Assembly (NCBI GenBank): GCA_019429125.1
Contig: JAHYJO010000001.1
Coordinates: 7,088-71,087 of the forward strand
DNA: 64,000 nucleotides
Reading direction: 5' to 3'
From: Nanobdellati archaeon
GTDB lineage: Archaea > EX4484-52 > GLR71
The notes under the pieces are model-generated. The model was not told the origin of the DNA, ran no database searches, and saw nothing but the letters and a program-made list of their open reading frames with translations. The position numbers and the translations under genes are program-made. Shown here piece after piece: positions 1 through 63,795 of this stretch. The stretch's first letter is position 1, and each line of letters begins with the position of its first letter.

Positions 1-3000
1 TATGCGGTTGGGCCACAAAAGTGGAAATATGGACTTCTTAATAATCCTGCATATAATTCAACAAATTCTACTGAATTTTATTATAATATAACAACTGCAC
101 CGCTTGTGGTTATGCTTGAATCTCCTATAGGAGGTATTACATTTGAGAAAGGAGTGAACAATATTCTTCTTCGTGGTAATGTTAGTGATGATTGTGGTCT
201 TGTTAAAGGCGCTAACGTTGAAATTAATATTGTTAAAGATGAGACGACGTATGCAACGTGTAATCCTGCTGGGGACGAAAATACAGGGTGGTATAATTGT
301 ACAATTGTTAATACCACCCATAATACATGGCCAGTTGGTCTGTATAATATTACAATGAAAGCAGATAAAAAGTATTATAATGATTCTGAAATGTTAGTTG
401 TGGAAAATGCTTTCCGGCTTGTTATAAGACCTATATTGTCAAATCCTACTGCAACATCAATACAGGGTGGAAGTGTAGGTGGTTGGGGTGAGTTATGGGA
501 TTTTACTGTGGATATATCAGATCCAGATGGTGACAGTTCAAATGTATCATTTTGGATAAATCTAACGGGGTCATGGGAATTTATGGATTCAGTTATTTGG
601 GCACAAGGAAATCCTACTATAACTTTTTCAGGTAAGACATTTTCTTGTGCAGATGCGTTGGATCTTGGTGTGAAACAATATAAGTTCAATGTATCTGATG
701 ATTATAATTATACGAGTAATATTACATCAACAATGACAATTGAAAAAGATGATGTTTTTGTAAATCCAACAGCTACTGGAGGTCAGAGTGTTGACAGGAA
801 TGGTACTGTTACAATACTTCTTCAGACACAGATAATGGATATGGATAAAGCATATGCACCTGTAGGGTCTGGTGTGGATGGTATGACTTGGGTTACTGTT
901 AATGGTAGTGATCTTAGCAGTTATGATGGTGGTTATGGATTGCAGACAGATGCAAGTGGATATTTAAATTATAATTTTGATATAAACTGTTCTTATACAA
1001 CAGGTCAGCATGCATGGAAAGGTGGAACTTTTGCTAGTGTATGTTATAAGGACTCTATATCATCTACTATGTACTTTGATTCGTTAGGTAAATTATATAC
1101 TGATATTGAATTACCTGTGAATGGTTCAAATTATGGGACGGGTACACAAATAATAATGAGAGCTAATGTGACAAGTGAATGTGTTAATGAAGGTCTTATT
1201 GATTCTGAAGTGAAAGGGTTTGAATTTAAGAGTCCGTCTTCGTCATGGTATGGATGTTCACCTATAAATGAAGAGGAAGGTCTTGATACAGGATGGTATA
1301 ATTGTACTTGGGATTCAACATTTAAACAGCCCGGTAATTGGACAATAAGGACAAATGCGTCAAATGATACCTATTATACTGCAGTCAATACATGGGTTGA
1401 TTATTTTGAACTTCTTAATAATCCACCTAGTTATTCAGATATGAATGTTACACCAGATGCTGGTGCTTGGGGTACAGTTTATACTTTCAGTGTCAATTTC
1501 ACTGATTCTGATGCGGATACAGTTGATTGCGACCTTTATGTTACAACTGATAATGGTGCTACATGGAAACTCCGAAATTCAACAACACTTACAAGTCCTG
1601 CAGTTTGTAACTTGACTGTATCTGATTTTGATTGTGGGGATATTGGTAATGATAACTTTTTCAAGTTCGGTCTTGATGATGGTTATAATACAATAAATAC
1701 TACAAATATGAGTGGACCAAATATTACAGTTGATAATATTGAGATAATCTATGTTTATGGAAATGATAAAGATGTCAACAGGTCATATGGAATATTACCT
1801 CTTAAAGTTTATGTCAATGATACAACAAAAGGTAGTTTTGTGTCACCTAATGTGCCTGTATATTTCAATATAACAACTGATGGCGTTGCTTATAATTTAG
1901 AGGGTTCAAATGTAACGGTAAATGGTAACTCTACATATTCATTTATACCATCATGTTCATATTATGAAGGTGAACAGACTTGGTATGCTGAAGTGAATGA
2001 TTCTTGTTATATTCCAAAAAATACAACTGAATATAATCTGACAGTCTATGGTACATTAACTAATACACTTGATATACCAAATGGGGTTGAATATTTACCT
2101 AATAATAATATCACACTTCGTGCAAATGTTACAAGTGACTGTCCTGCAGAAGTCATGAATGATACGGATGTAACTTTCAGATATTTCAGGACTGGATATT
2201 CAAATACATGTACTGTTGAAAATGAATCTACAAGCTATTATAATTGTACATTTAATAACACTGGAATGTCACCTGGATATTATGATTTTGAAATGAATTC
2301 ATCAAAATCATTTTATAATACTGATTCAAGAGTATTTTCATATGTATATGGTATTTCATCTTTCTGGCTTGAGACTTTGCCTGTTCTTACAACACCAACT
2401 GTAAGTCCAGGTGTTGGTGGATGGGGGGAAACATTCTATTTCACTACAAATGCAACAGATAGAGATTTGGATACAATGACTGTCAGATTATGGTTGCGAA
2501 AGAAACCAGCCGGAAGTTGGGTTCAGAAGAATATAACAACGGTTCAAGGTATTAATCAGACCGTAAACCTATCTACAAGATTCCCAAGTGGAGGGGATAT
2601 GGGTGACTGGGAATTTAATTTTACAGTTACTGCAGATGATTCTTGGGATGTATATGGGACACAAAATGTATCGTTTACAGTTGAGGCAAATGATGTACGA
2701 ATTGAAATAATTTCTGGAAATGATTCTATTGTCAATAGATCTAGTCTTCCTGGCAACAGTAATCCTAATGTGACTTTTGGTGTGCGTGTCTTTGATGATG
2801 ATCTTAATGCACTCATTCCGTATTCTATAACTACAAGATTTTATGTGACAAAAGACGGTAGTAATTTCACGATATTGGCAACGCCACAAAATGAGACCAG
2901 TGAATTTTACGTCACACTAAATCCCGATTGCAGTTATGGTATAGGTCCTCAGATGTGGAAAGCATCAAGTGTCTTTTCAATGAACAGTTGGTATAAGCGG

Positions 3001-6000
3001 ATAAATACTTCAGATCAATATTTTAACATTACAACGGTTCCTCTGTCTACAGAGATATCTGAACCAGCAGGGATTACAACAGTCCGTGATATGGATAATA
3101 TATTGCTTCGTGCTAATGTAACAGATGAATGTGGTCTTGTAGTAGGTGCTAGTCCTGTAATTGTAGTTGAGAGATTAACAGTACCTTATTTTACTTGCCC
3201 AACAGATGGTTCTTTACAGTATGAAGGAAATGGATATTATAATTGTACAGTTCCGGCTGCATCAATGTCTGGTTGGCCAACAGGAAATTACGATGTCAAG
3301 ATTGATTCTTCAAAAGTATATTATAATTCATCTGAGACAAATATTAAAAATAATGCGTTCCGTCTTGTGACTGTGCCTAAAGTTGATAATACTGTCATAA
3401 CGTCTTTGAGTGCTACTGGTTCATCTGATTTCGGTTGGGGTGAAGACTGGACATTTACAGTTGATGTACTTGATGAAGATAATGATAATGTCAATGTATA
3501 TCTTTGGGCTAACCTTACTGGTAATTGGGAACTTTTGGATTCAACAACATGTACAAATTGTGGTGGAAGTACGCACACAATAGAATTTACAGGTCTTAAA
3601 TTCTTATGTACTCATATAGGTAACCGTGATTTCAAGTTCAATGTGTCTGATGATTATAGTTATACAAATGAGACAGTAGGTACATTTGATATAATAAAAG
3701 ATGATACAGTCACATATTATGGTATGGTTGGTGATTCATCACAGATTGATAGGGAAGGAAATGATGTTGAAATATTTTCTGTAAGAGTACGAGATATTGA
3801 TTTCAATGCTTATGTAGGTACAACAATACCTAATGCTACTGGTAAAATATTTGTGACAACAGATGGTGTAAGTTATGATGCTGGAACACAAAATCAGACA
3901 GATGTTTCTGGATATTTGTATTATACATTTAATCCAGATTGCAATTATCTTGTAGGTGCACAGAAATGGTATGGTGGACCAAGAGGTGATTCATGTTATA
4001 TGGATTCAGATTCATCAATGTTTGATACGACCATAACAGGACAGCTGAAGAGTTCAATTACAAATCCTGCATACAGTTCAAGTGTTCTTGTAGGTGATAT
4101 AGTTAATCTTAATTCAAGTGTATTTGATGAGTGTTTTGTGCCTGTGTCAGGTGTAACTATAACTCATCAGGCAGGTCCATTATCTGTTGACTTTGAAGAC
4201 ATTACACCAGTATCTGATGCAGGTGACGGATATTATAATTCTACTTGGGACACCATGTTCCATCAAGGTGGCAATTGGAGTTTTATGCTAAATGCCAGTA
4301 AGATTAATTATTATAGTAATTCAACAGTGTATGAGGAATGGTTATATCTGGATAATACTCCTCCTGTTGTTGAAAATTTCACTGTATCACCTACTATTGA
4401 AGGTTGGGGTCATGTATACACTTATGATGCACAGATGTACGATATACAACAGGATAATATCACTTGTGATCTTTATGTAAGTACAGATAATGGTGTGTCT
4501 TGGGTATTGAAAAATAGTACATTCATTGAGACTGTTTCAACTTTAGGTGTGGCTAATTGTACATTGTCATTATCTAACTTTGATTGTTCTGAAATTGGTA
4601 CTGATAATCAGTATAAGTTCCAGATAGATGATGGTACAAATGTATTTAATACAAGTTCAATATCTGGACCAAATATTACAAAAGATACGGTGTCTATTGA
4701 TTATGTTTTCGGTAATGATTCAATTGTCAACAGGTCTGGTAGTCAGACTACTTTATTTTCTGCACGAGTTCTTGATTCTGATAAGGGAAGTATACCAGTA
4801 ATGACCGGTTCTTCAGTCACTTTCTGGACAACTTATGATAATGTGGTTTATGATTTAGGATATGTAATATCAACTAATAGTACTGGTTATGCAAATTATA
4901 ATTTCAATCCGGTATGCAATCCTGTAAAGTATGAGGTTGGATTACAATATTGGAGTGCTGGCGTGACTGATTCTTGTTATAGCAGTATCAATACAAGCAG
5001 TAATTATACAACTATAATCTATGGTTCAATGGATAATCAGATATTATTACCTCTTGGAACTAAGTTTATTTCAGGGATAGATAATGTTACAATTAGGTCA
5101 AATGTTACAAGTGATTGCAGTGTCGAGGAGACTATGAATGAAACACTTGTAAATTTCACAATGACTTCACTTTATACCGGGACACCTTACGGTTGTACAA
5201 CTGAAGTGTATAATGAATCAACCGGGTATTATAATTGTACATTTGAGACTGTGGGAAAAGAGCCTCGTGAATATAACATAACTATGAATGCAACAAAAGA
5301 GTATTATATTACTAATATTACAACGATGACATATTTAGCTAGTGTGTCATCATTCCGTATAGAAAATGTTCCTTTCATGACAGCACCTGTTGTAAGTCCT
5401 GGTGTTGGTGGATGGGGTGAAACATTCTTTTTTACTACAAATGTGACTGATGCAGATAATGATAGTATGACTGTCAGATTATGGTTGCGAAAGATTTCGG
5501 GTGGTAGTTGGGTTCAGAAGAATATAACAACGGTTCAAGGTATTAATCAGACTGTTAATCTTTCAACAACATTTGTAAGCGGTAATGATATTGGTGACTG
5601 GGAATTTAATTTCACAGTGACTGCAGATGACTCTTGGGATGTTTATGGAACTGAGAATGTATCATTTATTGTGGAACCAAATGATGTACGGATTGAAATA
5701 ATTTCAGGAAATGATTCAATAGTTAACAGGTCAAGTCTGCCTGGTAACAGCAATCCTAATGTGACTTTTGTCGTAAAGATATATGATGATGACAGAAATG
5801 TTTTAATTAATATTCCGATACAAACACGATTTTATGTTACAAAAGATGGTAGTAATTTTGTGACACTTGGAGATATATCAAACAATAGCGGATATTTCTT
5901 TGCGACTCTTAATCCTGATTGCACATATGCTGTAGGTCCACAGATGTGGAAAGTAGCAAGTGTATTTTCAGGGAGCAGTTGGTATAAATTGGCAAATTCA

Positions 6001-9000
6001 TCAAATCTGAATTTTAACATAACTACAATACCTTTAGCTACGGAACTTTCAGAACCGTTTGGTATTACAAGAGTTCGTAGTGTGGATGATATATTGCTCC
6101 GTGCTAATGTTACAGATGAGTGCGGTCTTGTGTCTGGTGCAAGTCTTGAATTTTTTGTAGACCAGTCAGCAATACCTTATTTTACATGTCCATCAGACAG
6201 TACATTAAATGATGAAAATGATGGGTATTATAATTGCACAATACCTGCTGAATCTACGTCTGGTTGGTCAACAGGGGATTATAATATAAATTATACTGTA
6301 TCAAAAGTGTATTACAATTCATCAGATATTATCATGGAAAATGATGCATTCCGTCTTGTTACAGTTCCTCAAGTAAGCAATCCAGTAATTACTACTTTGA
6401 CTTCTATAGGTTATTCTGATTTTGGATGGGGTGAGGACTGGACATTTGAGGTTGATGTTTTAGATTCTGATCAGGACAATGTCAATGTGTATCTATGGGT
6501 AAACCTTACTGGAGAATGGGAACTTTTGGATTCAACAGTCTGTACAAATTGTGGAACTACACAAACAATCAGTTTTGGAGGTCATGGCTTTTCATGTAGT
6601 AATATAGGTAATCGTGATTTTAAGTTCAATGTGTCTGATGATTATTCATACACGAATTATACTGTTGGTACATTTGACATAATAAAGGATGATACTATAA
6701 CATATTATGGTGGTCTGGGAGATTTATCACAGATAGATAGGGAAGGTAGTGATTTTGAGACTCTTACAGTACAAATATTTGATGCTGATTATAATGATTA
6801 TGTAGGTTCTTCAATCCCTATTGCTACTGGGAAAATATTTGTGACTACAGATGGTGTAAATTATGATATAGGAACATCAAATCAGACAGATGCTTCGGGG
6901 TACCTGTATTATATGTTTAATCCAGATTGCTCATATCTTGTAGGAAATCAAAAGTGGAAAGGTGGGTCAAAAGGTGATGCATGTTATGTAGATTCGGATT
7001 CATCAATGTTTGATATGACTATAACAGGACAGCTGAAGAGTTCAATTACAAATCCCGTATACAGTTCAAGTGTACTTGTGGGAGATAGCATAAATTTAAA
7101 TGCAAGTATATTTGATGAGTGTCTTATACTGGTACCTGGTGTAACTATAACTCATCAGGCGGTTTCACCATCTCTTGAATTTGAAGAGATTTTACCTGTA
7201 TCAGATTCCGGTGTAGGATATTATAATTCTACATTTGATACTATGTTCCATCAAGGTGGCAATTGGAGCTTTATGATAAATTCCAGTAAGGTTAATTATT
7301 ACAGTAATTCAACGTTGTTTTCTAATTGGACATACTTGAATAATACACCACCTACTGTTGAAAACTTTACAGTGTCGCCAGATGAGGATGGTTGGGGGCG
7401 TGTCTACAGTTATGAGGCACAAATCTTTGATACTCAGATGGATAATATAACTTGTGACCTTTATGTAAGCACAAATGGTGGTGCAATTTGGACACTTAAA
7501 AACAGTACATTTATTGAGACTGTTCCAACATCCGGATTTGCAAATTGTATATTATCATTATCTAATTTTGATTGTTCTGAAATTGGTACAGATAATTTGT
7601 ATAAATTCCAGATATTTGATGGTACAAATAAGTTTAACACCAGCGAGATATCTGGACCAAATCTTACAAAAGATACGGTGTCTATTGATTATGTATTCGG
7701 TAATGATTCAATTGTCAACAGGTCTGGTAGTCAGACTACTTTATTTTCTGCACGAGTTCTTGATTCTGATAAGGGAAGTATACCAGTAATGACCGGTTCT
7801 TCAGTCACTTTCTGGACAACTTATGATAATGTGAATTATAATACTGGAAGTGTGATATCAACAAATTCTACAGGTTATGCAACATATCAGTTTAATCCAA
7901 CTTGCAGTCCTGTAAATTATGAGGTTGGTCCACAGTATTGGAAAGCAGGTGTTACTGATTCTTGTTATGCACAGATAAATTTCACTCAAGATAATTATAC
8001 AACAACTGTTATGGGGGATATTATTAATACTATTGAAAATCCATTTTATGGTACAGAATATTTGCGTGGTGAGAATGTAACTGTAAGAAGTATATCTACA
8101 CCAACAATAATGGATGATTGTACTGCGAGTCTTTTAAATATTGATAATAGTATAATATTTTATAATGAGAATGGTGTGGCTAATTATTCCTGTATTACTA
8201 ATGAGGTTGGCGGAGGATATTACGAGTGCATAAGAAATACTACAGATATGGTTGCTAGATGGTATGATACTGAGATGGTATCATGGGAAACATATTATAA
8301 TAACGGGACTGTACTTCTACAAAATCATATATTTGTAAAGACAGCACCTAATATGACTGATGAAACTGCAATTACAAGTGTTGGAGGATGGGGTGAAACA
8401 TTCTATTTCTCTGTCAATGTGACTGATGAGGATTTAGATAATGTTACATTGAATCTGTATATAAAAAATACTGCATCAGGACCATTTGGTATTTGGGGCG
8501 CACCTAAAAACAGCACTATTCTTTATAGTCCTCAAGGAGAATATGCAGTATTGTCATGGAGTGATGCGCCTTATTGTACTATCGGCACTTGGGAATATAA
8601 ATTTGAAGCAATAGATACACATGGAGATACAACATTTACAGATGCACATAATTTCACGATTGAAAAGGATGATGTTGAAGTTCTATATTCTGTGGGTGAT
8701 GGCTCTTATGTTTGGAGGAATGGGTCTGATAGTACAACATTAACATTGGATATTGTTGATTCTGATAGAGGTAACATCTCTGTTGGGACAGGTACTTCTG
8801 CACGGTTCTGGGTGACTACAAATGCAAATGATTCTAGTTCATGGGATCTTGGAAAAGATACGGCAACATTGGAGGGGGCAATAGAATATTACTTTATGAA
8901 TCAGTTCCCTGATGGAGGTCAAAAATGTGATTATACTGTCGGTATCCAGAAATGGAAAGGCGGGACATTAAATGATATCTGTTATAAGGATCAGAATTCG

Positions 9001-12000
9001 ACGGAATATGATTTGTCTGTAAATTCAAGTTTGGTGCCTAACATAACAAATGTATACAGCCAGGGATATTTGAGAGGGGATTATATACCACTTCTTACAT
9101 CTGTAACAGATGATTGTGGTTCTGTTTCGAATGTTACACTATCATATGCTCTTTTGAACATGCCAAACCAGTATGTTTGTAGCAAACAAAGCAATGTGGG
9201 GTGGAATGAGAGTGATGGGGATTATAATTGCACTTGGGATTCTACAAACAAACCATATAAATGGTATAATGTTATTGCAACAGTTTCAAAAGAATTTTTT
9301 GTAACTAATATGACTTCAGGTAATGATAGGTTCTTTTTAGGTGTAACACCACAGCTTGATTCGTTAGCTGTAGCTCCTAAGATTGGTGGTTGGGGAGAAA
9401 ATCATCAGTTTAGTGTAAGGTTAACAAGTTTTGATCTTGCAACAAATAATGTATCATTGTGGAAAAGTTTTGATAATGTGTCTTGGGACCTTGTTAACTG
9501 GCAGACTGTTATTATGCCTATAGGCCAGTGGGTATATTTCAATGAAAGGTTCACATGTAATGATTACCTTACACCACCATCAGGTCTGAATTATTATAAG
9601 ATAATATCTAAAAATGTTTTCGGGTTCAGTACTGAAACGCCAGTATATAATTATACGCTTAATTATGATAATGTTACTTTGAGTATAACTCCTGCAAGCA
9701 ACGATACTGTTCGTCGACTGGGAGTGACAAATGCGTTATTTGAGGCAAGAATATATGATACTGACTATGGTATTTATCAGAATAATACAGATGCTAACAT
9801 ATGGGTCACAAAAGATGGTAGTGTATTTGATTATAATGAGTCCTGTTCATCTCTTGATGGTTATTGCAGAATAAATTATGACCCTCAATGTGATAGTGAT
9901 GCAGGAGTGCAGAAATGGAAGATAGAAGTGTATGATTTATGTTATCAGAATATCAATTCAACAAATGTCACAGTATCTGTAATTGGGCAACTGTACAGTA
10001 ATGTAGCCAGTCCAGAACAAAATGATATCCTTAACTTAAATACGACTATCAACTTAAATACAACTGTCTATGATGAGTGTGGTAATAATATAGTTGATGC
10101 ATCTGTTTATTGGTATAATAGTGTTCCTGTATCTATTGCTTCAGGATATGATACAACCTGGAATGTTCCATTAAGCTATACAAAAGGTCCAGAGAGTATA
10201 ATTACAAATTCAACTAGGCAATATTATGATAATGGTACAAATATGACTGATGTCTATGTGTATGGTTGGAGCATAATATCATCAATGTCACCACTTGACC
10301 TTTCAAGTTATCTTGCAGGATATGATGTGCCTGTACAATGTACTGTGACTGATGCCAATACTACTAGCAACCTTACGAATTATAATGTAAGCTTTTACAA
10401 AAATGATGTGTTCCAGGATTCAAATATGACCGATTCAAACGGGACTGCTGTATGGACTTGGGTTACTGATTTAGAACCTTATGGTTGGTATAACCTTAGT
10501 TGCATGATATCAAATGATGATACTTTGTATTATACTCCTGCAGTGGCTCAGATGAATACTACTGTTAGAGTGAACAGAACATTGATGATACAAAGTATAG
10601 TACTTTCTAATCCCGACATTTATCGGAATGATTCATTTGCACCTTATGATACAAACATAACTGTCAATATATATGATGCACTATTTGGGCCTGCAGATAA
10701 TGCAGATGTATGGTTCTATAATTCAACTGGATTTATAGACAATTGTACAACTGATGTGGCTGGCAATTGTTATATCAGTTATAATGCGCCTGATAATATT
10801 ACACCTCAAGGATATGCGGTCTATGTCAATTCAACAAAAGCTGGGCTTGAAGATTCAATAACTGACAATACAATAATAGGTGTATACGGTATATATTATA
10901 TCAACATTACGGAACCTGATAATGGTAGTTCTTGGAGTAAGGCAATAATATTAAACCTTTCATCGTATATTGAAAATGAGAATGGATATGTTGATACTGC
11001 AACTGTTAATTGGTATATTGATTCTGGATTTGTTGCAACTGGACAAAATACTACATCTCCACTTATTTCACAGTTGCCGGGACCTAAAATATTGCAATCA
11101 AATGCTACACGACCATATTATATTACGGGTACTGATAATATCTTATTGAATATAAATGGTCTTGTTGATGTCATGTGGTGGTATCCTCTTAACGGTTCCA
11201 AACAAGCATATCCTGGGTCTTTTGATGTCCAGTGTCTTGTGAAAGATAACACATCTGGTGTGTCGGTTGTAGGTTATGCTGTGGATTTCTGGTACTGGAA
11301 CGGTTCAGATTATGTTTATAATGGGACCTATACAACAAATGAATTAGGTATTGCTGGTTATACATGGTATCCTGAATCAAAAGGTGTTCTTGATTTCAAG
11401 TGTAATATAACAGATAATGCTACTGTGTTTTATTCGCCAAACATTGGTGACGATATTGCCACAATAATAGTTGAGGATATAAATCCACCTGTTATATCTA
11501 ATGTGAGCATAATTCTAAATAGTACACTTGAAGCAAATCTTAATTATACAAATATAACTGCTGTTGTGATAGATGATGTGTTTGTATATTCAGTTATTGC
11601 GAGCATTACTCTTCCTAACGGTACAATAGTTAACGAAACTATGAGTAATGTATTCAATGATACTTATCGTGTTGAATATTTACCCCCTGTCGGTGGAAAT
11701 TATTCAGTAGATATAGTTGCAAGTGATTCTCCACCTGAAAATAATACCAATATTGTGTATGCTGGAGATTTTTCAGTATGGGGTACGGCGGATATTATTG
11801 GGGAGAGGACAGATGAATATGTAGCATTTGGTATAACTCAAGTATCTGATGAATCATTTGTGTTGACTGTAAATGCAACAAATAATGGTCCTGCAACAGC
11901 TTATGATGTGTCAATAACAGTTTTAGAAGACCCTATCGGTACTGTGACTTATAATACAACAAATTATGAGTGTGGTAATTTGAGTGTAGGGGTAATGTGT

Positions 12001-15000
12001 TCAAGGGATTTCCTTGTGACAGTACCTTCAAAGACTGCTCCGCAACTTATAACGGTATACAGTACAATATGGTGGGATAATCCTGATAAGACACCTAATT
12101 CAACAGTTGGTATTACTTTAATTGATGTTGCATCAAATCCTGTAGTAGATATACTTGAGATATTTATACAAAATCAGACAAAACATGGAGAAACAACAAT
12201 AATAGGAACATTGACTGTAAGTTCAGCAGGAAATGATTATGTAGATAATATTGTATTATCTAAAGTAGGAATTATATTAGATCTTTCGTGTCCATTATGT
12301 AACTTGACAATGTCAAAACAAGTTGAAGAGACATTACCTGCCGGAGAATTTTTCACATCTGTAATATCAATAGATGTTCCATATGGTCAGAGTGCAGGGG
12401 ATTATTGGACATATATATCTGCTAAATCAGATAATGCAGCACAGGATTTGGTTATTGTTAATGCAACTGTACCACTTGATGTCACTTGGGAAAGAGAACC
12501 GTCCACCTTTGGAACGATTCTTGCTCTTGTAAATACAACTACTACTCAAATTGGTGTTATTTCTACTAAGAATAATGGTAATTCTGAACGAAATTTGATT
12601 GTTCAATCTGGTGGTAATGGTTCATTATTTATTACAAAAAGTCCAAACTCATCCTCATTGGGCATTGGTGCTTCAAGAAATGTAACTCTTAATTATTCTA
12701 TTCCTGCGCTAACAACGCAGGGTATGTATTATGTACAGATACACATAAGGGAATCATCAGCTAATCCATCTGATGCAATTACTGATTTCTGGCTCAATGT
12801 GACTGACTTACCTCCTGTAATATCTAATGTGTCTATCAAGCCTCGCGGGTATGAACCCGATGTAGGATATTCAAATATATCTGCTGTGGTGATAGATAAT
12901 GTTTTAGTCTCACATGTATGGTTGAATTCAACAAAGCCAAACGGTACAGATGAGATATATTATTTTACTTTGAATGGAAGTGATGCTTATCTTAATTACA
13001 GTGAGAATGAGACTGGAGTTCATAAGGTTGTTATATGTGCAAATGATTCTGCAAATCTTATCAGTTGCACTATGATTTATGATATTAGTGTTATGGTTAA
13101 TACAACAGTTGTTACAGAAACAAACATAACTAATACAACAATTTATGGTATCATGCTTGATACGGGACTTAATGTATCATTTAATTTCACAACACTTAAT
13201 GATGGGTATTCAAGAGCACTTGATGTAAATACATCTGTTTTGTATCCAGTTTTATGGAATGTGTCACCATCAGAGTTTAATATGGGTGACATAATTTTGA
13301 TGCCTTATCAAGGTGAAGCATTACTTTTAATACCCGCTGATGTTATTGGTGAGTATTATATTAATTTTACATCTAACTGGACTAATTATGACGGTTCAAA
13401 TGATACACTTATGACACCTATAAGGATTGTAATCGGGTCTAATCCTGCACTTAATGTAACTGATATGCCTGCGTCATTTGTGATTGAAAGCGGTAAAACT
13501 CTAAGTACTAATTTGACTTTGAAGTCAATTGGTAATGATATTGCAAAAAGTATAGCGTTTAATTGTACGGAGGGGGTTGTATGTTCTGAGTTTAATGTAT
13601 CTTTCAATCCACTAGTAATAGTAAATTTAACTAAAGGCAACAGTACGAATTTCACAATTAATATATCCGTTCCGCTTGGGTATTTAGCGGGGGTATATGA
13701 TGGTGTATTTACTGTATATGAATCAAAGACAAATTTATCTGTGAATATCACCGTTGTAATTCCTGCTAACTTGACATGGGAACATAATCCTGTCATAATC
13801 TCAAAAAATGTAATTGCAAATAGGACTGGTAATTTTGGTTCTGTCAGAGTGTCCAACATGGGCAATATACCTTTGACAGTTTCGGCAATATCTACAAATA
13901 CAACAATTTTTACAATAAATGAGAGTAGTATTAATTTGCCATTGGGAGATTACTATGATGCCATGATTAATTATAGTGCACCCGAAGTATTCAGCCTTGT
14001 CACATATTCAGCATATTTCAGGACAACTAATATAACAGCTTTACCTTCTGATAGGGAAACATTCTTGAATATAACTATATATCCATTGTATTTAGATATA
14101 ATTACTCCAACAACTGTGGTTCCTAAACTAAATGTCTCAAAAGGCAAAAATATAACTGCAATATTTAATCTTACTTATAGTCTTGTGCCTGTTTCTGAGA
14201 ATGTTACATGGCAGATAAATCTGACAAAGGATAGCACATCTTTTTCAGTAAATATTACACCTGAAAATATTAATTATTCAGCAATATCTGGTCTTTGGAC
14301 AATTAATTTCACCGCACCTGATATCCTTGCAGGAGTTGCTTATGACCTTGTTGCAATTGTATTTGATGAGATAAATAATATTGAGATAATTTCGGTTGAG
14401 AAAAAGGCAATAATTTATACAGATACAATTCCACCACTACTTTTTGTTGATTTATTTTCAAATATAATTAATGGTAGTGTTATACCAATTTATGTAAATA
14501 CAACAGACGTTGGTGGTATGGATTATGTGTCAGTTGAAATAACAACACCAAATGGTACTATTTTTGCATATAATGCAACTCTTTTAGATTCTGTTGGAAA
14601 TGATTATTTCTATAATCTTGACTTTATAGAAACATCAGTTTTGGGTGCTTATCCTGTAGCTATAAGTGCGTATGATCTTTCAAGTAATGTAAATACTACA
14701 AATGTAATATTCAATGCTTATCTACCTTCATATTTCAGAGGTTATTCTTATGATCTTGAAAGTGTGGATAATGAAACAGTAGTCTCTGCAGAATTCAAGT
14801 TGTATAAACATGATGAATCTGTATTGATGCATAATTTTTGGTCAGATAATGTGACTGGTCTTTATAATGAAAGTGTGTATGTCCGGTTATATGATGTCGT
14901 TGTTGACGTATTGAATTTGACTTTAACTTTCGATGATTTCAGTATGCCTCTTGGTGGAATTTTCAATCCATTGGTGTTTGGTGATATACCAATTGCACTT

Positions 15001-17355
15001 ATCGGTGCAGGACCTAAGAAAGCAGTATATATTGATAGTGCTATGAATTCAAATCCAAATATAGTATTTGATTATTCTCCATATGTTGATTTGATTGCAA
15101 GCGATATTGCGGTCTATAATTGTGATGATTGGGCTATAAAAACAGGATGTTTAAATCAATGGATAAGAAAGAATGTTACTGTTGATACTAATTTACGAAC
15201 TGTCACAATTGATACTATAAGTCCGACTGGTGCATATGCATTGGCACAATATATATGTGGGAATAAGATTTGTGAGGATGATTATGGCGAATCTAATTCA
15301 ATATGCCCAACTGATTGTAAGATAGATGTACCGTCATTGCCTCCTATGCCTGCACAACCAACATCAGGTGGTGGTAGTGGTTCTGGGACTGGTGCGGGTG
15401 AGGGACAAGGTCGTGAAACGGGTGCAGGTGCAGGAGGTATAGATAAGGACAGTTCAGATATAGATGGCAAAGGAGGAGAATTAGTTCCTATTGAGATAAA
15501 ATCTACACTACTTTACATAACTTTAGCTCCAGGTGAAAAATCAATACATTCAATTGAGATAAAAAATAATCAGGATAAGAAAGTAACATCACAGTTAAGT
15601 GTGGATGGACTTGTCTGGGACTTGATTCAGCTTGAGAAAACTGAGATAAAAGTGGATGAGAAATCAACTGAAAATGTAAAAATATCTGCATATGTATTGC
15701 CATCTACAATGCCAGGTATTTATACTGGTGATATAGTTGTTAAAACAGGGACTATGGTATATAGGACTCCTGTCACAGTAAAGGTTGAAATTAAAAAGGA
15801 AGCGCTTTTAGATGTCATAATTGAGACATTGTCAAGTGTGGTCAAGCCCGGTGAAGATGTAAAATTCATGGTTACTGTCAAGAATATGGGTGAGACTGAG
15901 ACTGTTGAAGACATAACACTTGAATATGTCATCAAGAGTCTTTCAAATAATACTATCATTACGACATATACCGAGACACTTGCAGTCAATAAATCATTAT
16001 CATTTGTCAAATCATTAAATATACCTAATAATACAAAAGAAGAACGGTATGTCATAACTTTAAATGCAAGATATGCAAATGCTGAAAAGTTTGCAACATC
16101 TTCTGACGTTGTTGATGTAAGCACACAACCATGGCCTATAGTCCTTCTTCTTAGATTGTTTAAGAGTTGGGTAACTTATGTCATATTATTAGTTGTATTG
16201 CCAATTCTTTATTTCGGACGAAAAGCATATCTATCATATCTCGACAAGAAAAAGAAGGGCGCGAGATATATATTCCCTATGGACTATTCAAAACTGCCAC
16301 AGAAAGGTGAAGAAAGTGTTAAGGTCGGTAAGATTGCAGAAACAGATATCAATGCATACATTAATATCAAGAACTTGACTATGCACTCAATTGCAGCAGG
16401 TGGTACTGGTTCTGGTAAGAGTGTAACTGCAATGTCAACGGCTGAAGAGTTATTAGACCTTGGCATCCCTGTTGTAGTATTTGACCCTACAGCACAGTGG
16501 AGTGGGTTTATGAGACCATGTAAAGATCCGCACATGCTTGAATTATATGCTAAGTATGGGCTTAAGCCTGAAAATGCAAAATCATATAAGACAAATATCA
16601 TTGTTGTTGAGAGCGCAGACAGCCTTACTGATGCAGAAATAGATATACGACAATATATGAAACCTGGTGAAATCACAGTATTTGTAATGAGCAAGTTGAG
16701 TTCATCAGAGCTTGATAAGTTTGTAAGAAGGACTATTAAGAGCATATTTAGCATACAGTGGCCTGAAGCGAAGACTTTGAGAGTTCTTATTGTGTATGAT
16801 GAGATGCACAGACTGCTACCTAAGTATGGCGGTAAGGGTGGATATCTTGAACTGGAACGTGGATGCCGTGAATTTAGGAAATGGGGTCTTGGTCTGTTTA
16901 TGATATCTCAGGTATTGGCGGATTTCAAGGGTGCTATAAAAGCTAATGTCGCAAATGAGATCCAATTAAGGACAAAGTATAATGGAGATATACAGCGTAT
17001 CAAACAAAGGTATGGTCCGGATTATGCTATGCGGGTGGCAAAACTTACTGTCGGTGCAGGGCTGATACAGAACCCTGAGTATAATGAAGGTAAACCATGG
17101 TTTATTCAATTCAGACCACTTTTGCATGATACTGGAAGATTAAGCAATGAAGAGCTTGATGTTTATATGGGTTTGAAAAAATCAATTGATGAGATTGCTT
17201 CAAAAGTTGCTAAGATGAAAGCAAAAGGTATGGATACATATGACATTGATATTGAAGTCAATATGGCACGTACTAAACTGCAACAGGGTGTGTTCAAGAT
17301 GGCTGAGACATATATACAGTCGCTTAAAGCAAGGTTGTCGTCAATGGCAGTATGA
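1..17355 (+). CDS. Giant repetitive cell-surface glycoprotein, 5'-truncated by the window edge. Extracellular region of more than 5,300 aa, C-terminal TM anchor, cytoplasmic HerA/FtsK-like ATPase domain.
   Basis: Uninterrupted frame-1 ORF from nt 1 (the track M at 106 is internal; upstream codons continue the repeat motif YAVGPQKWKYG) to TGA at 17353-17355. Very dense NxS/T sequons and paired Cys motifs (DDCGLV, WYNCT, DSCY). Modular repeats. C-terminal hydrophobic span followed by Walker A/B motifs. Confidence 0.85.
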   Translation, partial: YAVGPQKWKYGLLNNPAYNSTNSTEFYYNITTAPLVVMLESPIGGITFEKGVNNILLRGNVSDDCGLVKGANVEINIVKDETTYATCNPAGDENTGWYNCTIVNTTHNTWPVGLYNITMKADKKYYNDSEMLVVENAFRLVIRPILSNPTATSIQGGSVGGWGELWDFTVDISDPDGDSSNVSFWINLTGSWEFMDSVIWAQGNPTITFSGKTFSCADALDLGVKQYKFNVSDDYNYTSNITSTMTIEKDDVFVNPTATGGQSVDRNGTVTILLQTQIMDMDKAYAPVGSGVDGMTWVTVNGSDLSSYDGGYGLQTDASGYLNYNFDINCSYTTGQHAWKGGTFASVCYKDSISSTMYFDSLGKLYTDIELPVNGSNYGTGTQIIMRANVTSECVNEGLIDSEVKGFEFKSPSSSWYGCSPINEEEGLDTGWYNCTWDSTFKQPGNWTIRTNASNDTYYTAVNTWVDYFELLNNPPSYSDMNVTPDAGAWGTVYTFSVNFTDSDADTVDCDLYVTTDNGATWKLRNSTTLTSPAVCNLTVSDFDCGDIGNDNFFKFGLDDGYNTINTTNMSGPNITVDNIEIIYVYGNDKDVNRSYGILPLKVYVNDTTKGSFVSPNVPVYFNITTDGVAYNLEGSNVTVNGNSTYSFIPSCSYYEGEQTWYAEVNDSCYIPKNTTEYNLTVYGTLTNTLDIPNGVEYLPNNNITLRANVTSDCPAEVMNDTDVTFRYFRTGYSNTCTVENESTSYYNCTFNNTGMSPGYYDFEMNSSKSFYNTDSRVFSYVYGISSFWLETLPVLTTPTVSPGVGGWGETFYFTTNATDRDLDTMTVRLWLRKKPAGSWVQKNITTVQGINQTVNLSTRFPSGGDMGDWEFNFTVTADDSWDVYGTQNVSFTVEANDVRIEIISGNDSIVNRSSLPGNSNPNVTFGVRVFDDDLNALIPYSITTRFYVTKDGSNFTILATPQNETSEFYVTLNPDCSYGIGPQMWKASSVFSMNSWYKRINTSDQYFNITTVPLSTEISEPAGITTVRDMDNILLRANVTDECGLVVGASPVIVVERLTVPYFTCPTDGSLQYEGNGYYNCTVPAASMSGWPTGNYDVKIDSSKVYYNSSETNIKNNAFRLVTVPKVDNTVITSLSATGSSDFGWGEDWTFTVDVLDEDNDNVNVYLWANLTGNWELLDSTTCTNCGGSTHTIEFTGLKFLCTHIGNRDFKFNVSDDYSYTNETVGTFDIIKDDTVTYYGMVGDSSQIDREGNDVEIFSVRVRDIDFNAYVGTTIPNATGKIFVTTDGVSYDAGTQNQTDVSGYLYYTFNPDCNYLVGAQKWYGGPRGDSCYMDSDSSMFDTTITGQLKSSITNPAYSSSVLVGDIVNLNSSVFDECFVPVSGVTITHQAGPLSVDFEDITPVSDAGDGYYNSTWDTMFHQGGNWSFMLNASKINYYSNSTVYEEWLYLDNTPPVVENFTVSPTIEGWGHVYTYDAQMYDIQQDNITCDLYVSTDNGVSWVLKNSTFIETVSTLGVANCTLSLSNFDCSEIGTDNQYKFQIDDGTNVFNTSSISGPNITKDTVSIDYVFGNDSIVNRSGSQTTLFSARVLDSDKGSIPVMTGSSVTFWTTYDNVVYDLGYVISTNSTGYANYNFNPVCNPVKYEVGLQYWSAGVTDSCYSSINTSSNYTTIIYGSMDNQILLPLGTKFISGIDNVTIRSNVTSDCSVEETMNETLVNFTMTSLYTGTPYGCTTEVYNESTGYYNCTFETVGKEPREYNITMNATKEYYITNITTMTYLASVSSFRIENVPFMTAPVVSPGVGGWGETFFFTTNVTDADNDSMTVRLWLRKISGGSWVQKNITTVQGINQTVNLSTTFVSGNDIGDWEFNFTVTADDSWDVYGTENVSFIVEPNDVRIEIISGNDSIVNRSSLPGNSNPNVTFVVKIYDDDRNVLINIPIQTRFYVTKDGSNFVTLGDISNNSGYFFATLNPDCTYAVGPQMWKVASVFSGSSWYKLANSSNLNFNITTIPLATELSEPFGITRVRSVDDILLRANVTDECGLVSGASLEFFVDQSAIPYFTCPSDSTLNDENDGYYNCTIPAESTSGWSTGDYNINYTVSKVYYNSSDIIMENDAFRLVTVPQVSNPVITTLTSIGYSDFGWGEDWTFEVDVLDSDQDNVNVYLWVNLTGEWELLDSTVCTNCGTTQTISFGGHGFSCSNIGNRDFKFNVSDDYSYTNYTVGTFDIIKDDTITYYGGLGDLSQIDREGSDFETLTVQIFDADYNDYVGSSIPIATGKIFVTTDGVNYDIGTSNQTDASGYLYYMFNPDCSYLVGNQKWKGGSKGDACYVDSDSSMFDMTITGQLKSSITNPVYSSSVLVGDSINLNASIFDECLILVPGVTITHQAVSPSLEFEEILPVSDSGVGYYNSTFDTMFHQGGNWSFMINSSKVNYYSNSTLFSNWTYLNNTPPTVENFTVSPDEDGWGRVYSYEAQIFDTQMDNITCDLYVSTNGGAIWTLKNSTFIETVPTSGFANCILSLSNFDCSEIGTDNLYKFQIFDGTNKFNTSEISGPNLTKDTVSIDYVFGNDSIVNRSGSQTTLFSARVLDSDKGSIPVMTGSSVTFWTTYDNVNYNTGSVISTNSTGYATYQFNPTCSPVNYEVGPQYWKAGVTDSCYAQINFTQDNYTTTVMGDIINTIENPFYGTEYLRGENVTVRSISTPTIMDDCTASLLNIDNSIIFYNENGVANYSCITNEVGGGYYECIRNTTDMVARWYDTEMVSWETYYNNGTVLLQNHIFVKTAPNMTDETAITSVGGWGETFYFSVNVTDEDLDNVTLNLYIKNTASGPFGIWGAPKNSTILYSPQGEYAVLSWSDAPYCTIGTWEYKFEAIDTHGDTTFTDAHNFTIEKDDVEVLYSVGDGSYVWRNGSDSTTLTLDIVDSDRGNISVGTGTSARFWVTTNANDSSSWDLGKDTATLEGAIEYYFMNQFPDGGQKCDYTVGIQKWKGGTLNDICYKDQNSTEYDLSVNSSLVPNITNVYSQGYLRGDYIPLLTSVTDDCGSVSNVTLSYALLNMPNQYVCSKQSNVGWNESDGDYNCTWDSTNKPYKWYNVIATVSKEFFVTNMTSGNDRFFLGVTPQLDSLAVAPKIGGWGENHQFSVRLTSFDLATNNVSLWKSFDNVSWDLVNWQTVIMPIGQWVYFNERFTCNDYLTPPSGLNYYKIISKNVFGFSTETPVYNYTLNYDNVTLSITPASNDTVRRLGVTNALFEARIYDTDYGIYQNNTDANIWVTKDGSVFDYNESCSSLDGYCRINYDPQCDSDAGVQKWKIEVYDLCYQNINSTNVTVSVIGQLYSNVASPEQNDILNLNTTINLNTTVYDECGNNIVDASVYWYNSVPVSIASGYDTTWNVPLSYTKGPESIITNSTRQYYDNGTNMTDVYVYGWSIISSMSPLDLSSYLAGYDVPVQCTVTDANTTSNLTNYNVSFYKNDVFQDSNMTDSNGTAVWTWVTDLEPYGWYNLSCMISNDDTLYYTPAVAQMNTTVRVNRTLMIQSIVLSNPDIYRNDSFAPYDTNITVNIYDALFGPADNADVWFYNSTGFIDNCTTDVAGNCYISYNAPDNITPQGYAVYVNSTKAGLEDSITDNTIIGVYGIYYINITEPDNGSSWSKAIILNLSSYIENENGYVDTATVNWYIDSGFVATGQNTTSPLISQLPGPKILQSNATRPYYITGTDNILLNINGLVDVMWWYPLNGSKQAYPGSFDVQCLVKDNTSGVSVVGYAVDFWYWNGSDYVYNGTYTTNELGIAGYTWYPESKGVLDFKCNITDNATVFYSPNIGDDIATIIVEDINPPVISNVSIILNSTLEANLNYTNITAVVIDDVFVYSVIASITLPNGTIVNETMSNVFNDTYRVEYLPPVGGNYSVDIVASDSPPENNTNIVYAGDFSVWGTADIIGERTDEYVAFGITQVSDESFVLTVNATNNGPATAYDVSITVLEDPIGTVTYNTTNYECGNLSVGVMCSRDFLVTVPSKTAPQLITVYSTIWWDNPDKTPNSTVGITLIDVASNPVVDILEIFIQNQTKHGETTIIGTLTVSSAGNDYVDNIVLSKVGIILDLSCPLCNLTMSKQVEETLPAGEFFTSVISIDVPYGQSAGDYWTYISAKSDNAAQDLVIVNATVPLDVTWEREPSTFGTILALVNTTTTQIGVISTKNNGNSERNLIVQSGGNGSLFITKSPNSSSLGIGASRNVTLNYSIPALTTQGMYYVQIHIRESSANPSDAITDFWLNVTDLPPVISNVSIKPRGYEPDVGYSNISAVVIDNVLVSHVWLNSTKPNGTDEIYYFTLNGSDAYLNYSENETGVHKVVICANDSANLISCTMIYDISVMVNTTVVTETNITNTTIYGIMLDTGLNVSFNFTTLNDGYSRALDVNTSVLYPVLWNVSPSEFNMGDIILMPYQGEALLLIPADVIGEYYINFTSNWTNYDGSNDTLMTPIRIVIGSNPALNVTDMPASFVIESGKTLSTNLTLKSIGNDIAKSIAFNCTEGVVCSEFNVSFNPLVIVNLTKGNSTNFTINISVPLGYLAGVYDGVFTVYESKTNLSVNITVVIPANLTWEHNPVIISKNVIANRTGNFGSVRVSNMGNIPLTVSAISTNTTIFTINESSINLPLGDYYDAMINYSAPEVFSLVTYSAYFRTTNITALPSDRETFLNITIYPLYLDIITPTTVVPKLNVSKGKNITAIFNLTYSLVPVSENVTWQINLTKDSTSFSVNITPENINYSAISGLWTINFTAPDILAGVAYDLVAIVFDEINNIEIISVEKKAIIYTDTIPPLLFVDLFSNIINGSVIPIYVNTTDVGGMDYVSVEITTPNGTIFAYNATLLDSVGNDYFYNLDFIETSVLGAYPVAISAYDLSSNVNTTNVIFNAYLPSYFRGYSYDLESVDNETVVSAEFKLYKHDESVLMHNFWSDNVTGLYNESVYVRLYDVVVDVLNLTLTFDDFSMPLGGIFNPLVFGDIPIALIGAGPKKAVYIDSAMNSNPNIVFDYSPYVDLIASDIAVYNCDDWAIKTGCLNQWIRKNVTVDTNLRTVTIDTISPTGAYALAQYICGNKICEDDYGESNSICPTDCKIDVPSLPPMPAQPTSGGGSGSGTGAGEGQGRETGAGAGGIDKDSSDIDGKGGELVPIEIKSTLLYITLAPGEKSIHSIEIKNNQDKKVTSQLSVDGLVWDLIQLEKTEIKVDEKSTENVKISAYVLPSTMPGIYTGDIVVKTGTMVYRTPVTVKVEIKKEALLDVIIETLSSVVKPGEDVKFMVTVKNMGETETVEDITLEYVIKSLSNNTIITTYTETLAVNKSLSFVKSLNIPNNTKEERYVITLNARYANAEKFATSSDVVDVSTQPWPIVLLLRLFKSWVTYVILLVVLPILYFGRKAYLSYLDKKKKGARYIFPMDYSKLPQKGEESVKVGKIAETDINAYINIKNLTMHSIAAGGTGSGKSVTAMSTAEELLDLGIPVVVFDPTAQWSGFMRPCKDPHMLELYAKYGLKPENAKSYKTNIIVVESADSLTDAEIDIRQYMKPGEITVFVMSKLSSSELDKFVRRTIKSIFSIQWPEAKTLRVLIVYDEMHRLLPKYGGKGGYLELERGCREFRKWGLGLFMISQVLADFKGAIKANVANEIQLRTKYNGDIQRIKQRYGPDYAMRVAKLTVGAGLIQNPEYNEGKPWFIQFRPLLHDTGRLSNEELDVYMGLKKSIDEIASKVAKMKAKGMDTYDIDIEVNMARTKLQQGVFKMAETYIQSLKARLSSMAV
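4681..4845 (+). repeat. 165-nt tract nearly identical (1 mismatch) to 7669-7833, inside otherwise ~85-88% identical repeat units.
   Basis: Direct comparison. aaagatacggtgtctattgattatgt(t/a)ttcggtaatgattcaattgtcaacaggtctggtagtcagactactttattttctgcacgagttcttgattctgataagggaagtataccagtaatgaccggttcttcagtcactttctggacaacttatgataatgtg occurs at both sites. Confidence 0.85.
7669..7833 (+). repeat. Second copy of the near-identical 165-nt tract (partner of 4681-4845). The offset equals the super-repeat period of 2,988 nt.
   Basis: Same as above. Confidence 0.85.
15337..15480 (+). other. Pro/Gly/Ser/Thr-rich low-complexity linker (SLPPMPAQPTSGGGSGSGTGAGEGQGRETGAGAGG) between the repeat ectodomain and the membrane-proximal domains. 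It is preceded by a small Cys cluster (CGNKICEDDYGESNSICPTDC).
   Basis: Read from the translation. The antisense ORF at 15282-15470 is its shadow. Confidence 0.6.
16132..16215 (+). other. Predicted single transmembrane anchor of the giant protein (WPIVLLLRLFKSWVTYVILLVVLPILYF), followed by a basic stretch (GRKAYLSYLDKKKKGAR).
   Basis: 28-residue hydrophobic stretch followed by K/R-rich residues (positive-inside rule), placing the downstream ATPase in the cytoplasm. Confidence 0.6.
16380..17352 (+). other. C-terminal FtsK/HerA-superfamily (DUF87/VirB4/TraG-like) P-loop ATPase domain fused to the giant surface protein.
   Basis: Walker A AAGGTGSGKS (nt 16399-16422), then VVVFDPTAQW, Walker B LRVLIVYDEMHRLLP (DE at 16798-16803), then ERGCREFRKWGLGLFMISQ (RKxG...SQ arginine-finger region). 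Order and spacing are typical of the HerA/VirB4 clade. Confidence 0.7.
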
Positions 17356-34411: not shown

Positions 34412-35069
34412 TCTTATATTATTTGCAATGTTGTTTGCGTTATTATTAGTGGAACCTGTGTGTGCATTCAATCTTGGTACTTTACAGAAAACTACAAGTT
34501 ATAATGTCACTTCTGGGGAGACTGTTCAATTTGATATTTTATTCTGGAACACGGAAGCTATAGGTTATAATTTACAATTGGAAATTGTTCACGTACCTAA
34601 AGATTGGGTTGTAATCTCTGACCCTTCTATGTTTTATCTTGATAATAATTATTCGGGTAAGATTGAACATATGTATATTTCCCGACTTAAGAAAACTGTT
34701 AATGCAGCTTTAGTAAATGTTTATGTTTATGTTCCTAAATCAGAAAAGTTGGGTAAATATACTGTGGTGTTGAAAGCTGTGGCAGGTGAGGGGGATTCTA
34801 TATCTGGTTTTTCGTTGAGGCAGGAACGCACTTTCTTTTTTGATGTCTATGTGACAGAAGATTTATATCTGGACGCACACAATGATGAAATAGAATCAAA
34901 AAGTGTTTCTATAGATATAAAGCCTATTATTAACCATAAAAAAAGCGATGTATTGTATAGGGGTTCAGAACGACCTGTTAGTATATTTCAATATATGAAG
35001 GGTGTTATTTTTTTGTTGATAATTATAATGATTTTATGGATTGCACGGAGGATATATGAATATGATTGA
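34392..35069 (+). CDS. Hypothetical exported protein (about 225 aa) with a signal peptide and a C-terminal TM (VIFLLIIIMILWIARRIY).
   Basis: ATG at 34392 gives signal peptide MGIHNRSLILFAMLFALLLVEPVCA. It overlaps the previous gene by 20 nt in another frame, so the track start at 34287 was not used. Confidence 0.6.
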   Translation: MGIHNRSLILFAMLFALLLVEPVCAFNLGTLQKTTSYNVTSGETVQFDILFWNTEAIGYNLQLEIVHVPKDWVVISDPSMFYLDNNYSGKIEHMYISRLKKTVNAALVNVYVYVPKSEKLGKYTVVLKAVAGEGDSISGFSLRQERTFFFDVYVTEDLYLDAHNDEIESKSVSIDIKPIINHKKSDVLYRGSERPVSIFQYMKGVIFLLIIIMILWIARRIYEYD

Positions 35070-46837: not shown

Positions 46838-46850
46838 CGGTATTTCCTCA

Positions 46851-47048
46851 TCAATCTAGTTTGATTATAATTTTCCCCTCATCTTCAAGAGTTTCCAGTT
46901 CTTCGGTGAATCTGTCTGCATTAGTCTTGTCTACTATGAATATCTTTTCATCTTTTGCGTCTTTAGGGTTGTCGTAACTGTTTTTAATGCCTGCAAGGTT
47001 GAAACCGGTGACGGTATCTTTAGTGCCTATAATGCATATCATTTCCAA
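46851..47048 (-). CDS. atpF: A/V-type ATP synthase subunit F (short, 65 aa).
   Basis: N-terminal ICIIGTKDTVTGFNLAGI motif. Overlaps atpC. Confidence 0.6.
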   Translation of the reverse strand: MEMICIIGTKDTVTGFNLAGIKNSYDNPKDAKDEKIFIVDKTNADRFTEELETLEDEGKIIIKLD

Positions 47049-63765: not shown

Positions 63766-63795
63766 GAGGTTCTTATTTATAATTATTAAAAAAAG

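Follow-up and report, generated by a model that had tools for sequence, protein, structure and literature searches.

A giant surface protein with a cytoplasmic HerA-like ATPase in a DPANN genome, a probable member of the SPEARE family

Identification of the giant protein

At the left end of the window examined here (the whole stretch of 64,000 nt, or 64 kb, that was analyzed, from contig JAHYJO010000001.1 of assembly GCA_019429125.1, a Nanobdellati archaeon), a single open reading frame (ORF) encodes a giant protein in which a very long ectodomain is joined through one transmembrane (TM) helix to a cytoplasmic ATPase. We are confident that this protein is an Aenigmarchaeota-like (DPANN) member of the SPEARE family; that confidence covers its identity and anatomy and not its mechanism, the function of the ATPase being something that we infer. 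An earlier note on this DNA, made from the sequence alone, had taken the fusion for an undescribed architecture, but it is already the SPEARE layout of Hamm et al. (2019; PMC6642349) and Reva et al. (2023; PMC10266531), and the functions suggested in that note (DNA or protein exchange, force generation) are essentially ideas put forward in the same two papers.

The name SPEARE was given to very long nanohaloarchaeal proteins whose greater part lies outside the cytoplasm; a TM domain is situated toward the C-terminus, and a conserved part inside the cell was read as a type III restriction enzyme; similar sequences were found in Woesearchaeota, Aenigmarchaeota, Micrarchaeota and Altiarchaeales, and proteomics showed that a SPEARE protein is made (Hamm et al., 2019). 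One of the nanohaloarchaeal giants, SVXNc_0300 (9,409 aa), was subsequently described as a signal peptide, ~75 Ig-like domains, a TM domain, a VirB4/TraG-like ATPase and a coiled-coil tip, and a type IV-secretion-like role was proposed for these proteins, with injection of effectors into the host (Reva et al., 2023). In later papers SPEAREs are referred to as a known DPANN feature.

To compare the window protein with named representatives, the SPEARE loci of Ca. Nanohalococcus occultus SVXNc and Ca. Nanopetramus SG9 were fetched via their short ATPase paralogs. The last 623 aa of the giant align end-to-end with SPEARE 1 of SG9 (8,553 aa; 37% identity, E 6e-137), with SVXNc_0300 (35%, E 9e-131) and with a Woesearchaeota giant of 15,808 aa (39%, E 6e-147). 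The Pfam profile is alike in all three aligned giants, consisting of DUF87, HerA_C, ResIII and AAA_10, and is that of the window protein as well; the weak ResIII match common to these tails explains the restriction-enzyme annotation of 2019. As in NAR1_1133 of Ca. Nanohaloarchaeum antarcticus, in SG9 and in SVXNc_0300, a giant ectodomain is followed by a TM helix near the C-terminus, a cytoplasmic P-loop ATPase and a coiled-coil tip, and the same coiled-coil gene lies directly downstream as in the nanohaloarchaeal loci. The window giant differs from the nanohaloarchaeal SPEAREs in coming from a different phylum, with a non-halophilic composition (~34% GC), and in having an ectodomain built of ~330-aa modules where theirs have Ig repeats of ~100 aa. 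The guess that the DNA came from a small-genome, host-associated archaeon was a good one: the homologs are from DPANN, and a neighboring gene is 100% identical to a gene in a metagenome-assembled genome (MAG) labeled “DPANN group archaeon.”

Reading frame, topology and ectodomain

Frame 1 of the forward strand is free of stop codons from nt 1 to 17352 and ends with the stop codon at 17353-17355, which gives 5,784 codons within the window; the ORF runs off the left edge, and the N-terminus of the protein lies beyond it. In the window the frame is uninterrupted over 17.3 kb, also between ectodomain and ATPase, where the earlier note had considered a stop or frameshift. Topology was assigned from hydropathy, from the basic stretch and from the distribution of NxS/T sequons and Cys residues. 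A Kyte-Doolittle scan finds one strong hydrophobic span, at aa 5379-5405, which has the highest hydrophobicity score of the whole protein and is followed by RKAYLSYLDKKKKGAR; weaker stretches within the ectodomain (aa 3851-3872, 4084-4102 and 4770-4788) barely exceed the threshold of the scan. N-terminal of this span there are 264 sequons and 85 Cys, against 1 and 2, respectively, C-terminal of it, and because both vanish there, the boundary between outside and inside is placed at the TM helix. Both the extracellular nature of most of the protein and the hydrophobic span with its basic stop-transfer stretch are thus as the earlier note had described them. By these sequence criteria the giant is a type I membrane protein with a cytoplasmic C-terminal region.

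More than 5,370 aa precede the TM helix, with NPCBM_assoc/CARDB-like matches and with beta-sandwich domains in the structural model; apart from the NPCBM_assoc/CARDB-like matches, a Pfam search of the part of the ectodomain in the window, down to E 0.5, was almost empty. Residues ~1-3300 (nt 1-9900) are made up of about ten tandem modules of ~330 aa, with internal repeats that are 25-76% identical, and within this region there is a super-repeat of ~996 aa (~3 kb) whose copies are 68-76% identical. This level of identity points to recent internal duplication, to judge from the repeats themselves, and the ~3-kb super-repeats are also a possible source of assembly or length variation. A 90%-identical relative (locus L001) has the same giant ORF upstream, broken only by a scaffold gap and one frame break, and in a comparison of the two orthologs the ectodomain is 65-69% identical and the C-terminal core module 86%. 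The difference in rate, together with the repeats, would fit a rapidly diversifying binding surface. In L001 (5611-5795 and 9801-9900) there is the one frame break, and the gap, of 100 N, lies over the Gly-rich hinge; the public gene call there begins at an internal Met and yields a “protein” of 591 aa.

The conserved membrane-proximal module

The invariant core of the family, as read from the aligned sequences, is a Gly-rich hinge, two beta-sandwich domains, the TM helix, the ATPase and a coiled-coil tip (coordinates in Table 1). Giants of diverse length carry this core module as their tail, and it is also found by itself, in proteins of ~550-730 aa that have a signal peptide of their own. 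An AlphaFold2 (AF2) model of the last 623 aa of the giant, calculated as a monomer with 56 homologs, has a mean predicted local distance difference test score (pLDDT) of 87 and places the beta-sandwich pair at residues 1-214, a long TM helix at 217-259, the RecA-like core at 278-545 and C-terminal helices at 555-622; in this last block, the coiled-coil tip, the pLDDT is about 88-93 save for the last few residues.

Gly-rich stretches similar to the linker of the window giant are found at the same place in P0019, P0085, SVXNc_0300 and the giant of L004, and may serve as a hinge or a processing site, the latter being hinted at by size-fraction data in Hamm et al. (2019). Positions W.TY and P..Y.G of the TM helix are moderately conserved across the family, and in the juxtamembrane motif conservation is at least 90% at R261, Y262, P265 and L271 and complete at P272 (alignment A1). 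Conservation of residues within and just below the membrane hints at helix packing or the binding of a partner, and not at a passive anchor.

The ATPase domain and its relatives

All four of the ATPase motifs listed in the earlier note are present, in the order given there, and the placement of the C-terminal ~400 aa in the FtsK-HerA/VirB4/TraG clade is borne out by profile searches of the kind suggested in that note. In Pfam, DUF87 (the HerA central domain) scores 42 bits (cut-off 23.2; E 1.3e-10) and HerA_C 27 bits (cut-off 22); below their cut-offs are ResIII (18-19 bits against 22.5; E 0.001-0.002) and FtsK_SpoIIIE (PF01580; 16.9 bits against 24). A PDB sequence search ranks HerA first (8wiv, E 4e-8; 4d2i, E 2e-7), several of the top PDB neighbors being defence HerAs, and the top structural match in Foldseek is Sulfolobus HerA (E 7e-13). 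HerA models also come first in NCBIfam, with scores far under the equivalog cut-offs (NF040937, 42 bits against 800; NF040819, 22 against 970), and in PADLOC (best E 3e-16). In the 56-sequence alignment there is no variation at the Lys of Walker A, at the Asp-Glu of Walker B, at the RK of the arginine-finger block or at the SQ sensor; with all of its catalytic residues intact, the domain looks like an active ATPase, a prediction based on this invariance. By sequence and fold the domain is assigned as HerA-like, and neither as a restriction enzyme nor as a bona fide VirB4.

Its characterized close structural relatives, HerA, VirB4, TrwB, FtsK and EccC, translocate DNA or protein through a ring. 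The resemblance to HerA lies in the RecA core, with Walker A, Walker B and an EGRKxG...SQ block; in the predicted structure there is no N-terminal HAS-barrel, the TM helix and a 30-aa juxtamembrane segment standing in its stead, and scans of the window ORFs found no NurA, Mre11, Rad50 or defence effector near the gene. Models for VirB4 and other parts of type IV secretion systems (T4SS) score poorly (TIGR02746 TraC, 19 bits against 567; TraD, 15.5 against 521), and a search at E<=1 gives no match to PF03135, the N-terminal domain of VirB4, in any of the window protein, SVXNc_0299 and the tail of SVXNc_0300. A published statement has SVXNc_0299 (P0284; L085 8100-10001) carrying PF03135, which we could not reproduce with the current Pfam at that threshold; the N-terminal part of SVXNc_0299 is a signal peptide and a beta-sandwich ectodomain. 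T4SS Pfam families are absent from the ORFs scanned across the window, although divergent archaeal analogs could escape Pfam. For the Ced/Ted systems, the CedD model NF053655 matches in the Walker A region only (37 bits against 600), and neither a CedA-type polytopic partner nor any other Ced component was recognized in the window. Unlike the VirB4, VirD4/TrwB and Ced/Ted ATPases, that of the window has a giant adhesin attached to it covalently. In FtsK/SpoIIIE and EccC/EssC there are two to four TM helices where the giant has one, and no counterpart of its huge extracellular part; EccC has three ATPase domains against a single one here, and FtsK differs in its gamma domain, the C-terminus of the giant being a coiled coil and not a winged helix.

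Breadth of the family

In an exhaustive HMMER search, 903 of 1.84 billion cluster representatives matched at E<=1e-3 and 359 at E<=1e-30. The longest of the best 150 representatives reaches 7,878 aa; a length of 1,000 aa or more is seen in 109 of them, of 2,000 aa or more in 67 and of 4,000 aa or more in 20. The ATPase always occupies the C-terminal part. A locus scan with one genome per GTDB species confirmed at least 581 loci, in Aenigmatarchaeota, Micrarchaeota, Woese-/Nanoarchaeia, Parvarchaeota, Undinarchaeota, Altiarchaeota and Nanohalarchaeota. The same fusion, for which the earlier note had proposed a search of metagenome bins, is therefore widespread among DPANN. A full 10-kb upstream flank is available for 49 loci, and in 45 of these the ATPase frame is open all the way across it; the junction at the TM helix is continuous in every family member examined. 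The nearest homologs, from Aenigmarchaeota and other DPANN MAGs, are labeled merely “DUF87 domain-containing protein”; one from an NCBI Aenigmarchaeota MAG (P0001) is 95% identical and includes the ATPase, the TM helix and 250 aa of ectodomain. An assembly chimera is excluded because the fusion recurs in this independent MAG protein, in many loci and in the giant ORF of L001.

Additional sequence of 60-490 aa follows the ATPase in 65 of the 150 representatives (P0258, P0177, P0231, P0217 and others), and the ten longest of these tails, which were inspected, are E/K-rich coiled coil or P/A/E-rich low complexity. A small repeated motif, ...NHFADWI/NDFADWF..., is present in some of them. In Woesearchaeota and Nanohaloarchaeota a giant with its own C-terminal ATPase overlaps a short paralog by 4 nt (L004 1-12100, L085 1-11872, L087 1-11878), the short form having a signal peptide in front of the beta-sandwich pair, TM helix and ATPase; rings of mixed giant and short subunits are conceivable. 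No second copy of the ATPase is encoded in the 64-kb window, which has the giant form only.

The Woesearchaeota giant aligned above is a called gene of 15,808 aa (L004; GCA_021734865.1, JAIPIC010000001.1) with the same C-terminal module, and a further gene of at least 4,143 aa lies downstream; if real, the 15,808-aa protein far exceeds the one of 9,409 aa reported as the largest in cultivated archaea. Relatives are also present in MAGs labeled Nanoarchaeia, Parvarchaeota and Undinarchaeota (L046, L070, L073, L077 and L082; labels as deposited), and Hamm et al. (2019) had found none in Nanoarchaeota or Parvarchaeota.

A conserved coiled-coil partner

The gene that follows the giant encodes a cytoplasmic protein of 668 aa which matches no Pfam or NCBIfam family, and for which AF2 predicts, at low confidence (pLDDT 57), an all-helical structure of long helices and disordered linkers. 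A homolog lies directly downstream of the ATPase in 79 of the 87 loci fetched (for example at L085 11917-13455, L087 11913-14138, L004 12097-14187 and L002 6690-8273), and it is present in Nanohaloarchaeota (in both type loci), Woesearchaeota, Micrarchaeota and Undinarchaeota. We consider it a likely physical partner of the ATPase. A BLAST search of the 150 representatives for Rosetta-stone fusions of the two genes gave none. A term search of Reva et al. (2023) found no mention of the partner gene, and neither this conserved downstream gene nor the family-wide pair of membrane-proximal beta-sandwich domains turned up in our literature searches. Motifs resembling SHOCT or CdvA in the partner and in the cytoplasmic tails were sub-threshold (E 0.003-0.013) and were not used. 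A scan for bacterial-type promoters and terminators, whose models are not designed for archaea, found no more sites between the genes than in shuffled sequence, and no terminator on the + strand.

Proposed mechanism and alternative explanations

In the proposed mechanism the ectodomain would bind a host cell and the ATPase, by analogy with its relatives HerA, VirB4 and FtsK, would assemble as a ring under the membrane at the site of contact; such a ring would bring together six TM helices and six pairs of beta-sandwich domains, the latter as a collar. That ATP would then power the transport of a polymer, either DNA or protein, between symbiont and host is a tentative proposal in which our confidence is somewhat short of even. 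Several points weigh against the SPEARE assignment or against the mechanism drawn from it. The ATPase activity, the ring and the substrate of the family are predictions from homology; a single TM helix from each protomer gives little on which to base a channel; and among the window genes none was recognized as coding for a polytopic membrane partner, a pilin, a nuclease or another part of a secretion system. The N-terminus of the giant is beyond the window, hence no signal peptide is seen, and no short paralog follows the giant, unlike in Nanohaloarchaeota and Woesearchaeota. Serine-protease, laminin-G and toxin-like domains were not found by Pfam at E<=0.5 in the ~5,100-5,160 aa of ectodomain within the window, and were argued not to be real in the type proteins either (Reva et al., 2023). 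A broader form of the translocation proposal, which we hold to be rather unlikely, is that the core and the coiled-coil partner make up a self-contained, DPANN-wide trans-membrane translocon of a new type, compositionally unrelated to T4SS, Ced/Ted, type VII secretion systems or FtsK, to which giant adhesins were appended repeatedly and which moves DNA or proteins between symbiont and host.

The ATPase might instead be a hub for oligomerization and anchoring, in which ATP drives the assembly of a ring, or a change of conformation, that clusters, tensions or releases the giant adhesin stalks, and the coiled-coil partner acts as a cytoskeleton-like scaffold. The single TM helix linking the ATPase to the outside would suit such a hub, as would the retention of a long cytoplasmic coiled-coil partner in most loci, the coiled-coil or low-complexity extensions after the ATPase and the lack of a recognized channel-forming partner in the window; all of the characterized relatives, however, are ring translocators, and the beta-sandwich pair and TM helix are conserved beyond the needs of a passive anchor, so that we regard this explanation as possible but doubtful. 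Much less probable is a true T4SS component, a VirB4 or VirD4/TraG ortholog that injects effectors into the host as proposed for nanohaloarchaeal giants (Reva et al., 2023): HerA outscores VirB4 by every method used, the TraC and TraD scores and the missing PF03135 speak against it, and no genes like VirB2, VirB6 or VirB8 were detected in the window ORFs scanned.

Three further explanations are each highly improbable. The original interpretation by Hamm et al. (2019), that of a domain resembling a type III restriction enzyme or a helicase which would degrade imported DNA, draws on a weak ResIII match that is better in the nanohaloarchaeal proteins (~1e-6); this match is below the cut-off in the window protein and in all three proteins overlaps the stronger DUF87/HerA matches in the P-loop core, there is no nuclease domain, and the fold is of the HerA/FtsK type and not that of a superfamily 2 helicase, so that the interpretation is effectively refuted, as Reva et al. 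(2023) had also concluded. An assembly chimera or frameshift that joined a surface-protein gene to a separate gene for a membrane ATPase could be imagined from the short stand-alone modules with their own signal peptide, from the short forms that follow giants with a 4-nt overlap in L004, L085 and L087, and from the N-gap and frame break in the orthologous region of L001. The window frame is unbroken, however, with a Gly-rich linker and not a signal peptide before the conserved module; the giants that adjoin short forms have a C-terminal ATPase of their own; and the same fusion is present in over 100 independent cluster representatives and in dozens of genomes of different species, for which reason a chimera is rejected. 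Very little likewise favors an anti-virus defence module with a surface sensor, in the manner of Sir2-HerA or DUF4297-HerA: although the best PADLOC matches are HerA models and defence HerAs are among the top PDB neighbors, the NCBIfam model HerA_antiphage scores 15-17 bits against 800-850, no Sir2, DUF4297, nuclease or other effector is adjacent, the HAS-barrel on which the effectors of these systems dock is absent from the AF2 model, and the partner gene encodes a coiled-coil protein in a locus that is part of a surface-protein island.

DPANN depend on other cells, and how they take up material from their hosts is an open problem. Of the candidate tools, SPEARE-type proteins stand out the most, and they occupy several per cent of these very small genomes. 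The giant-plus-ATPase layout is the rule across DPANN, and the window shows the standard layout in an Aenigmarchaeota-like genome; it adds a member to the SPEARE family and not a new kind of system. Comparison across the family defines a minimal module, the core with its coiled-coil partner, that can be expressed, imaged and mutated, and the mechanism of the family is a testable question.

Genomic surroundings

The third gene of the locus encodes a large surface protein which, like the giant, is predicted to be of type I (Table 1). It begins with a signal peptide, its ectodomain is rich in sequons, and past the C-terminal TM helix a short coiled-coil tail lies in the cytoplasm. Pfam finds NPCBM_assoc, MG2 and CarboxypepD_reg in it, and an NPCBM_assoc-type region of 219 aa is shared, at 29% identity, with aa 3940-4158 of the giant. 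The earlier note had seen both downstream genes as linked to the giant: for the coiled-coil gene this stands, and for the surface protein a place in the SPEARE system is suggested by adjacency only. Its cytoplasmic tail has a weak GvpG/SHOCT-like motif.

Table 1. Coordinates of the giant gene, its conserved module and neighboring features in the window.
Feature	Position (nt)	Strand	Basis or remark
Variable giant ectodomain	1..15351	+	aa 1-5117; open frame, composition; N-terminus and signal peptide outside the window
Gly/Ser-rich flexible linker (PAQPTSGGGSGSGTGAGEGQG...)	15352..15483	+	sequence; between variable ectodomain and conserved module
Two membrane-proximal beta-sandwich (Ig/PapD-like, CARDB-like) domains	15484..16125	+	kept in giant and short family members alike
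Single TM helix, aa 5379-5405, then basic stop-transfer stretch	16135..16215	+	hydrophobicity; AF2 long helix, residues 217-259
Juxtamembrane cytoplasmic motif ARYxFPxDxxKLP, nearly invariant	16261..16299	+	alignment A1
HerA-like RecA-fold ATPase, FtsK-HerA superfamily	16315..17118	+	Pfam, PDB search, AF2/Foldseek
Walker A, AAGGTGSGKS	16393-16422	+	motif
VVVFDPTAQW (DPTxQW strand)	16471-16500	+	motif
Walker B, LIVYDEMHRLLP	16786-16821	+	motif
RKWG...SQ arginine-finger/sensor block, REFRKWGLGLFMISQ	16867-16911	+	motif
C-terminal three-helix coiled-coil tip	17146..17349	+	AF2 helices 555-580, 586-600, 604-622; conserved across family
Cytoplasmic coiled-coil partner, 668 aa	17393..19399	+	starts 37 nt past the giant stop; without TM helix
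Second large surface protein, 1,973 aa	19405..25326	+	starts 5 nt past the partner stop; translation, Pfam
A-type ATP synthase subunits D, B, A, C and subunit I; anaerobic ribonucleotide reductase; tRNA-Ser(GCU)	43134-47845 (-), 56201-57991 (-), 59741-61741 (+), 63795-63881 (-)		

Secreted or membrane-anchored proteins are encoded one after another over the first 37.7 kb of the window, and the remainder is housekeeping (A-type ATP synthase, anaerobic ribonucleotide reductase, malic enzyme); because housekeeping genes fill the rest of the window, the locus is taken to be chromosomal and not a conjugative element. Rfam and tRNA scans of the window found only one tRNA-Ser, distant from the giant locus. 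The GC content is 0.39-0.42 over the ATP synthase genes and ~0.34 elsewhere in the window. Between 25757 and 37723 the secreted or membrane-anchored proteins are of 344, 185, 272, 943, 839, 260, 454 and 298 aa, several with a C-terminal TM anchor; the ORF at 31892-34411 overlaps both that at 29098-31929 and that at 34287-35069, and the 943-aa protein has an (NM)n low-complexity cytoplasmic stretch.

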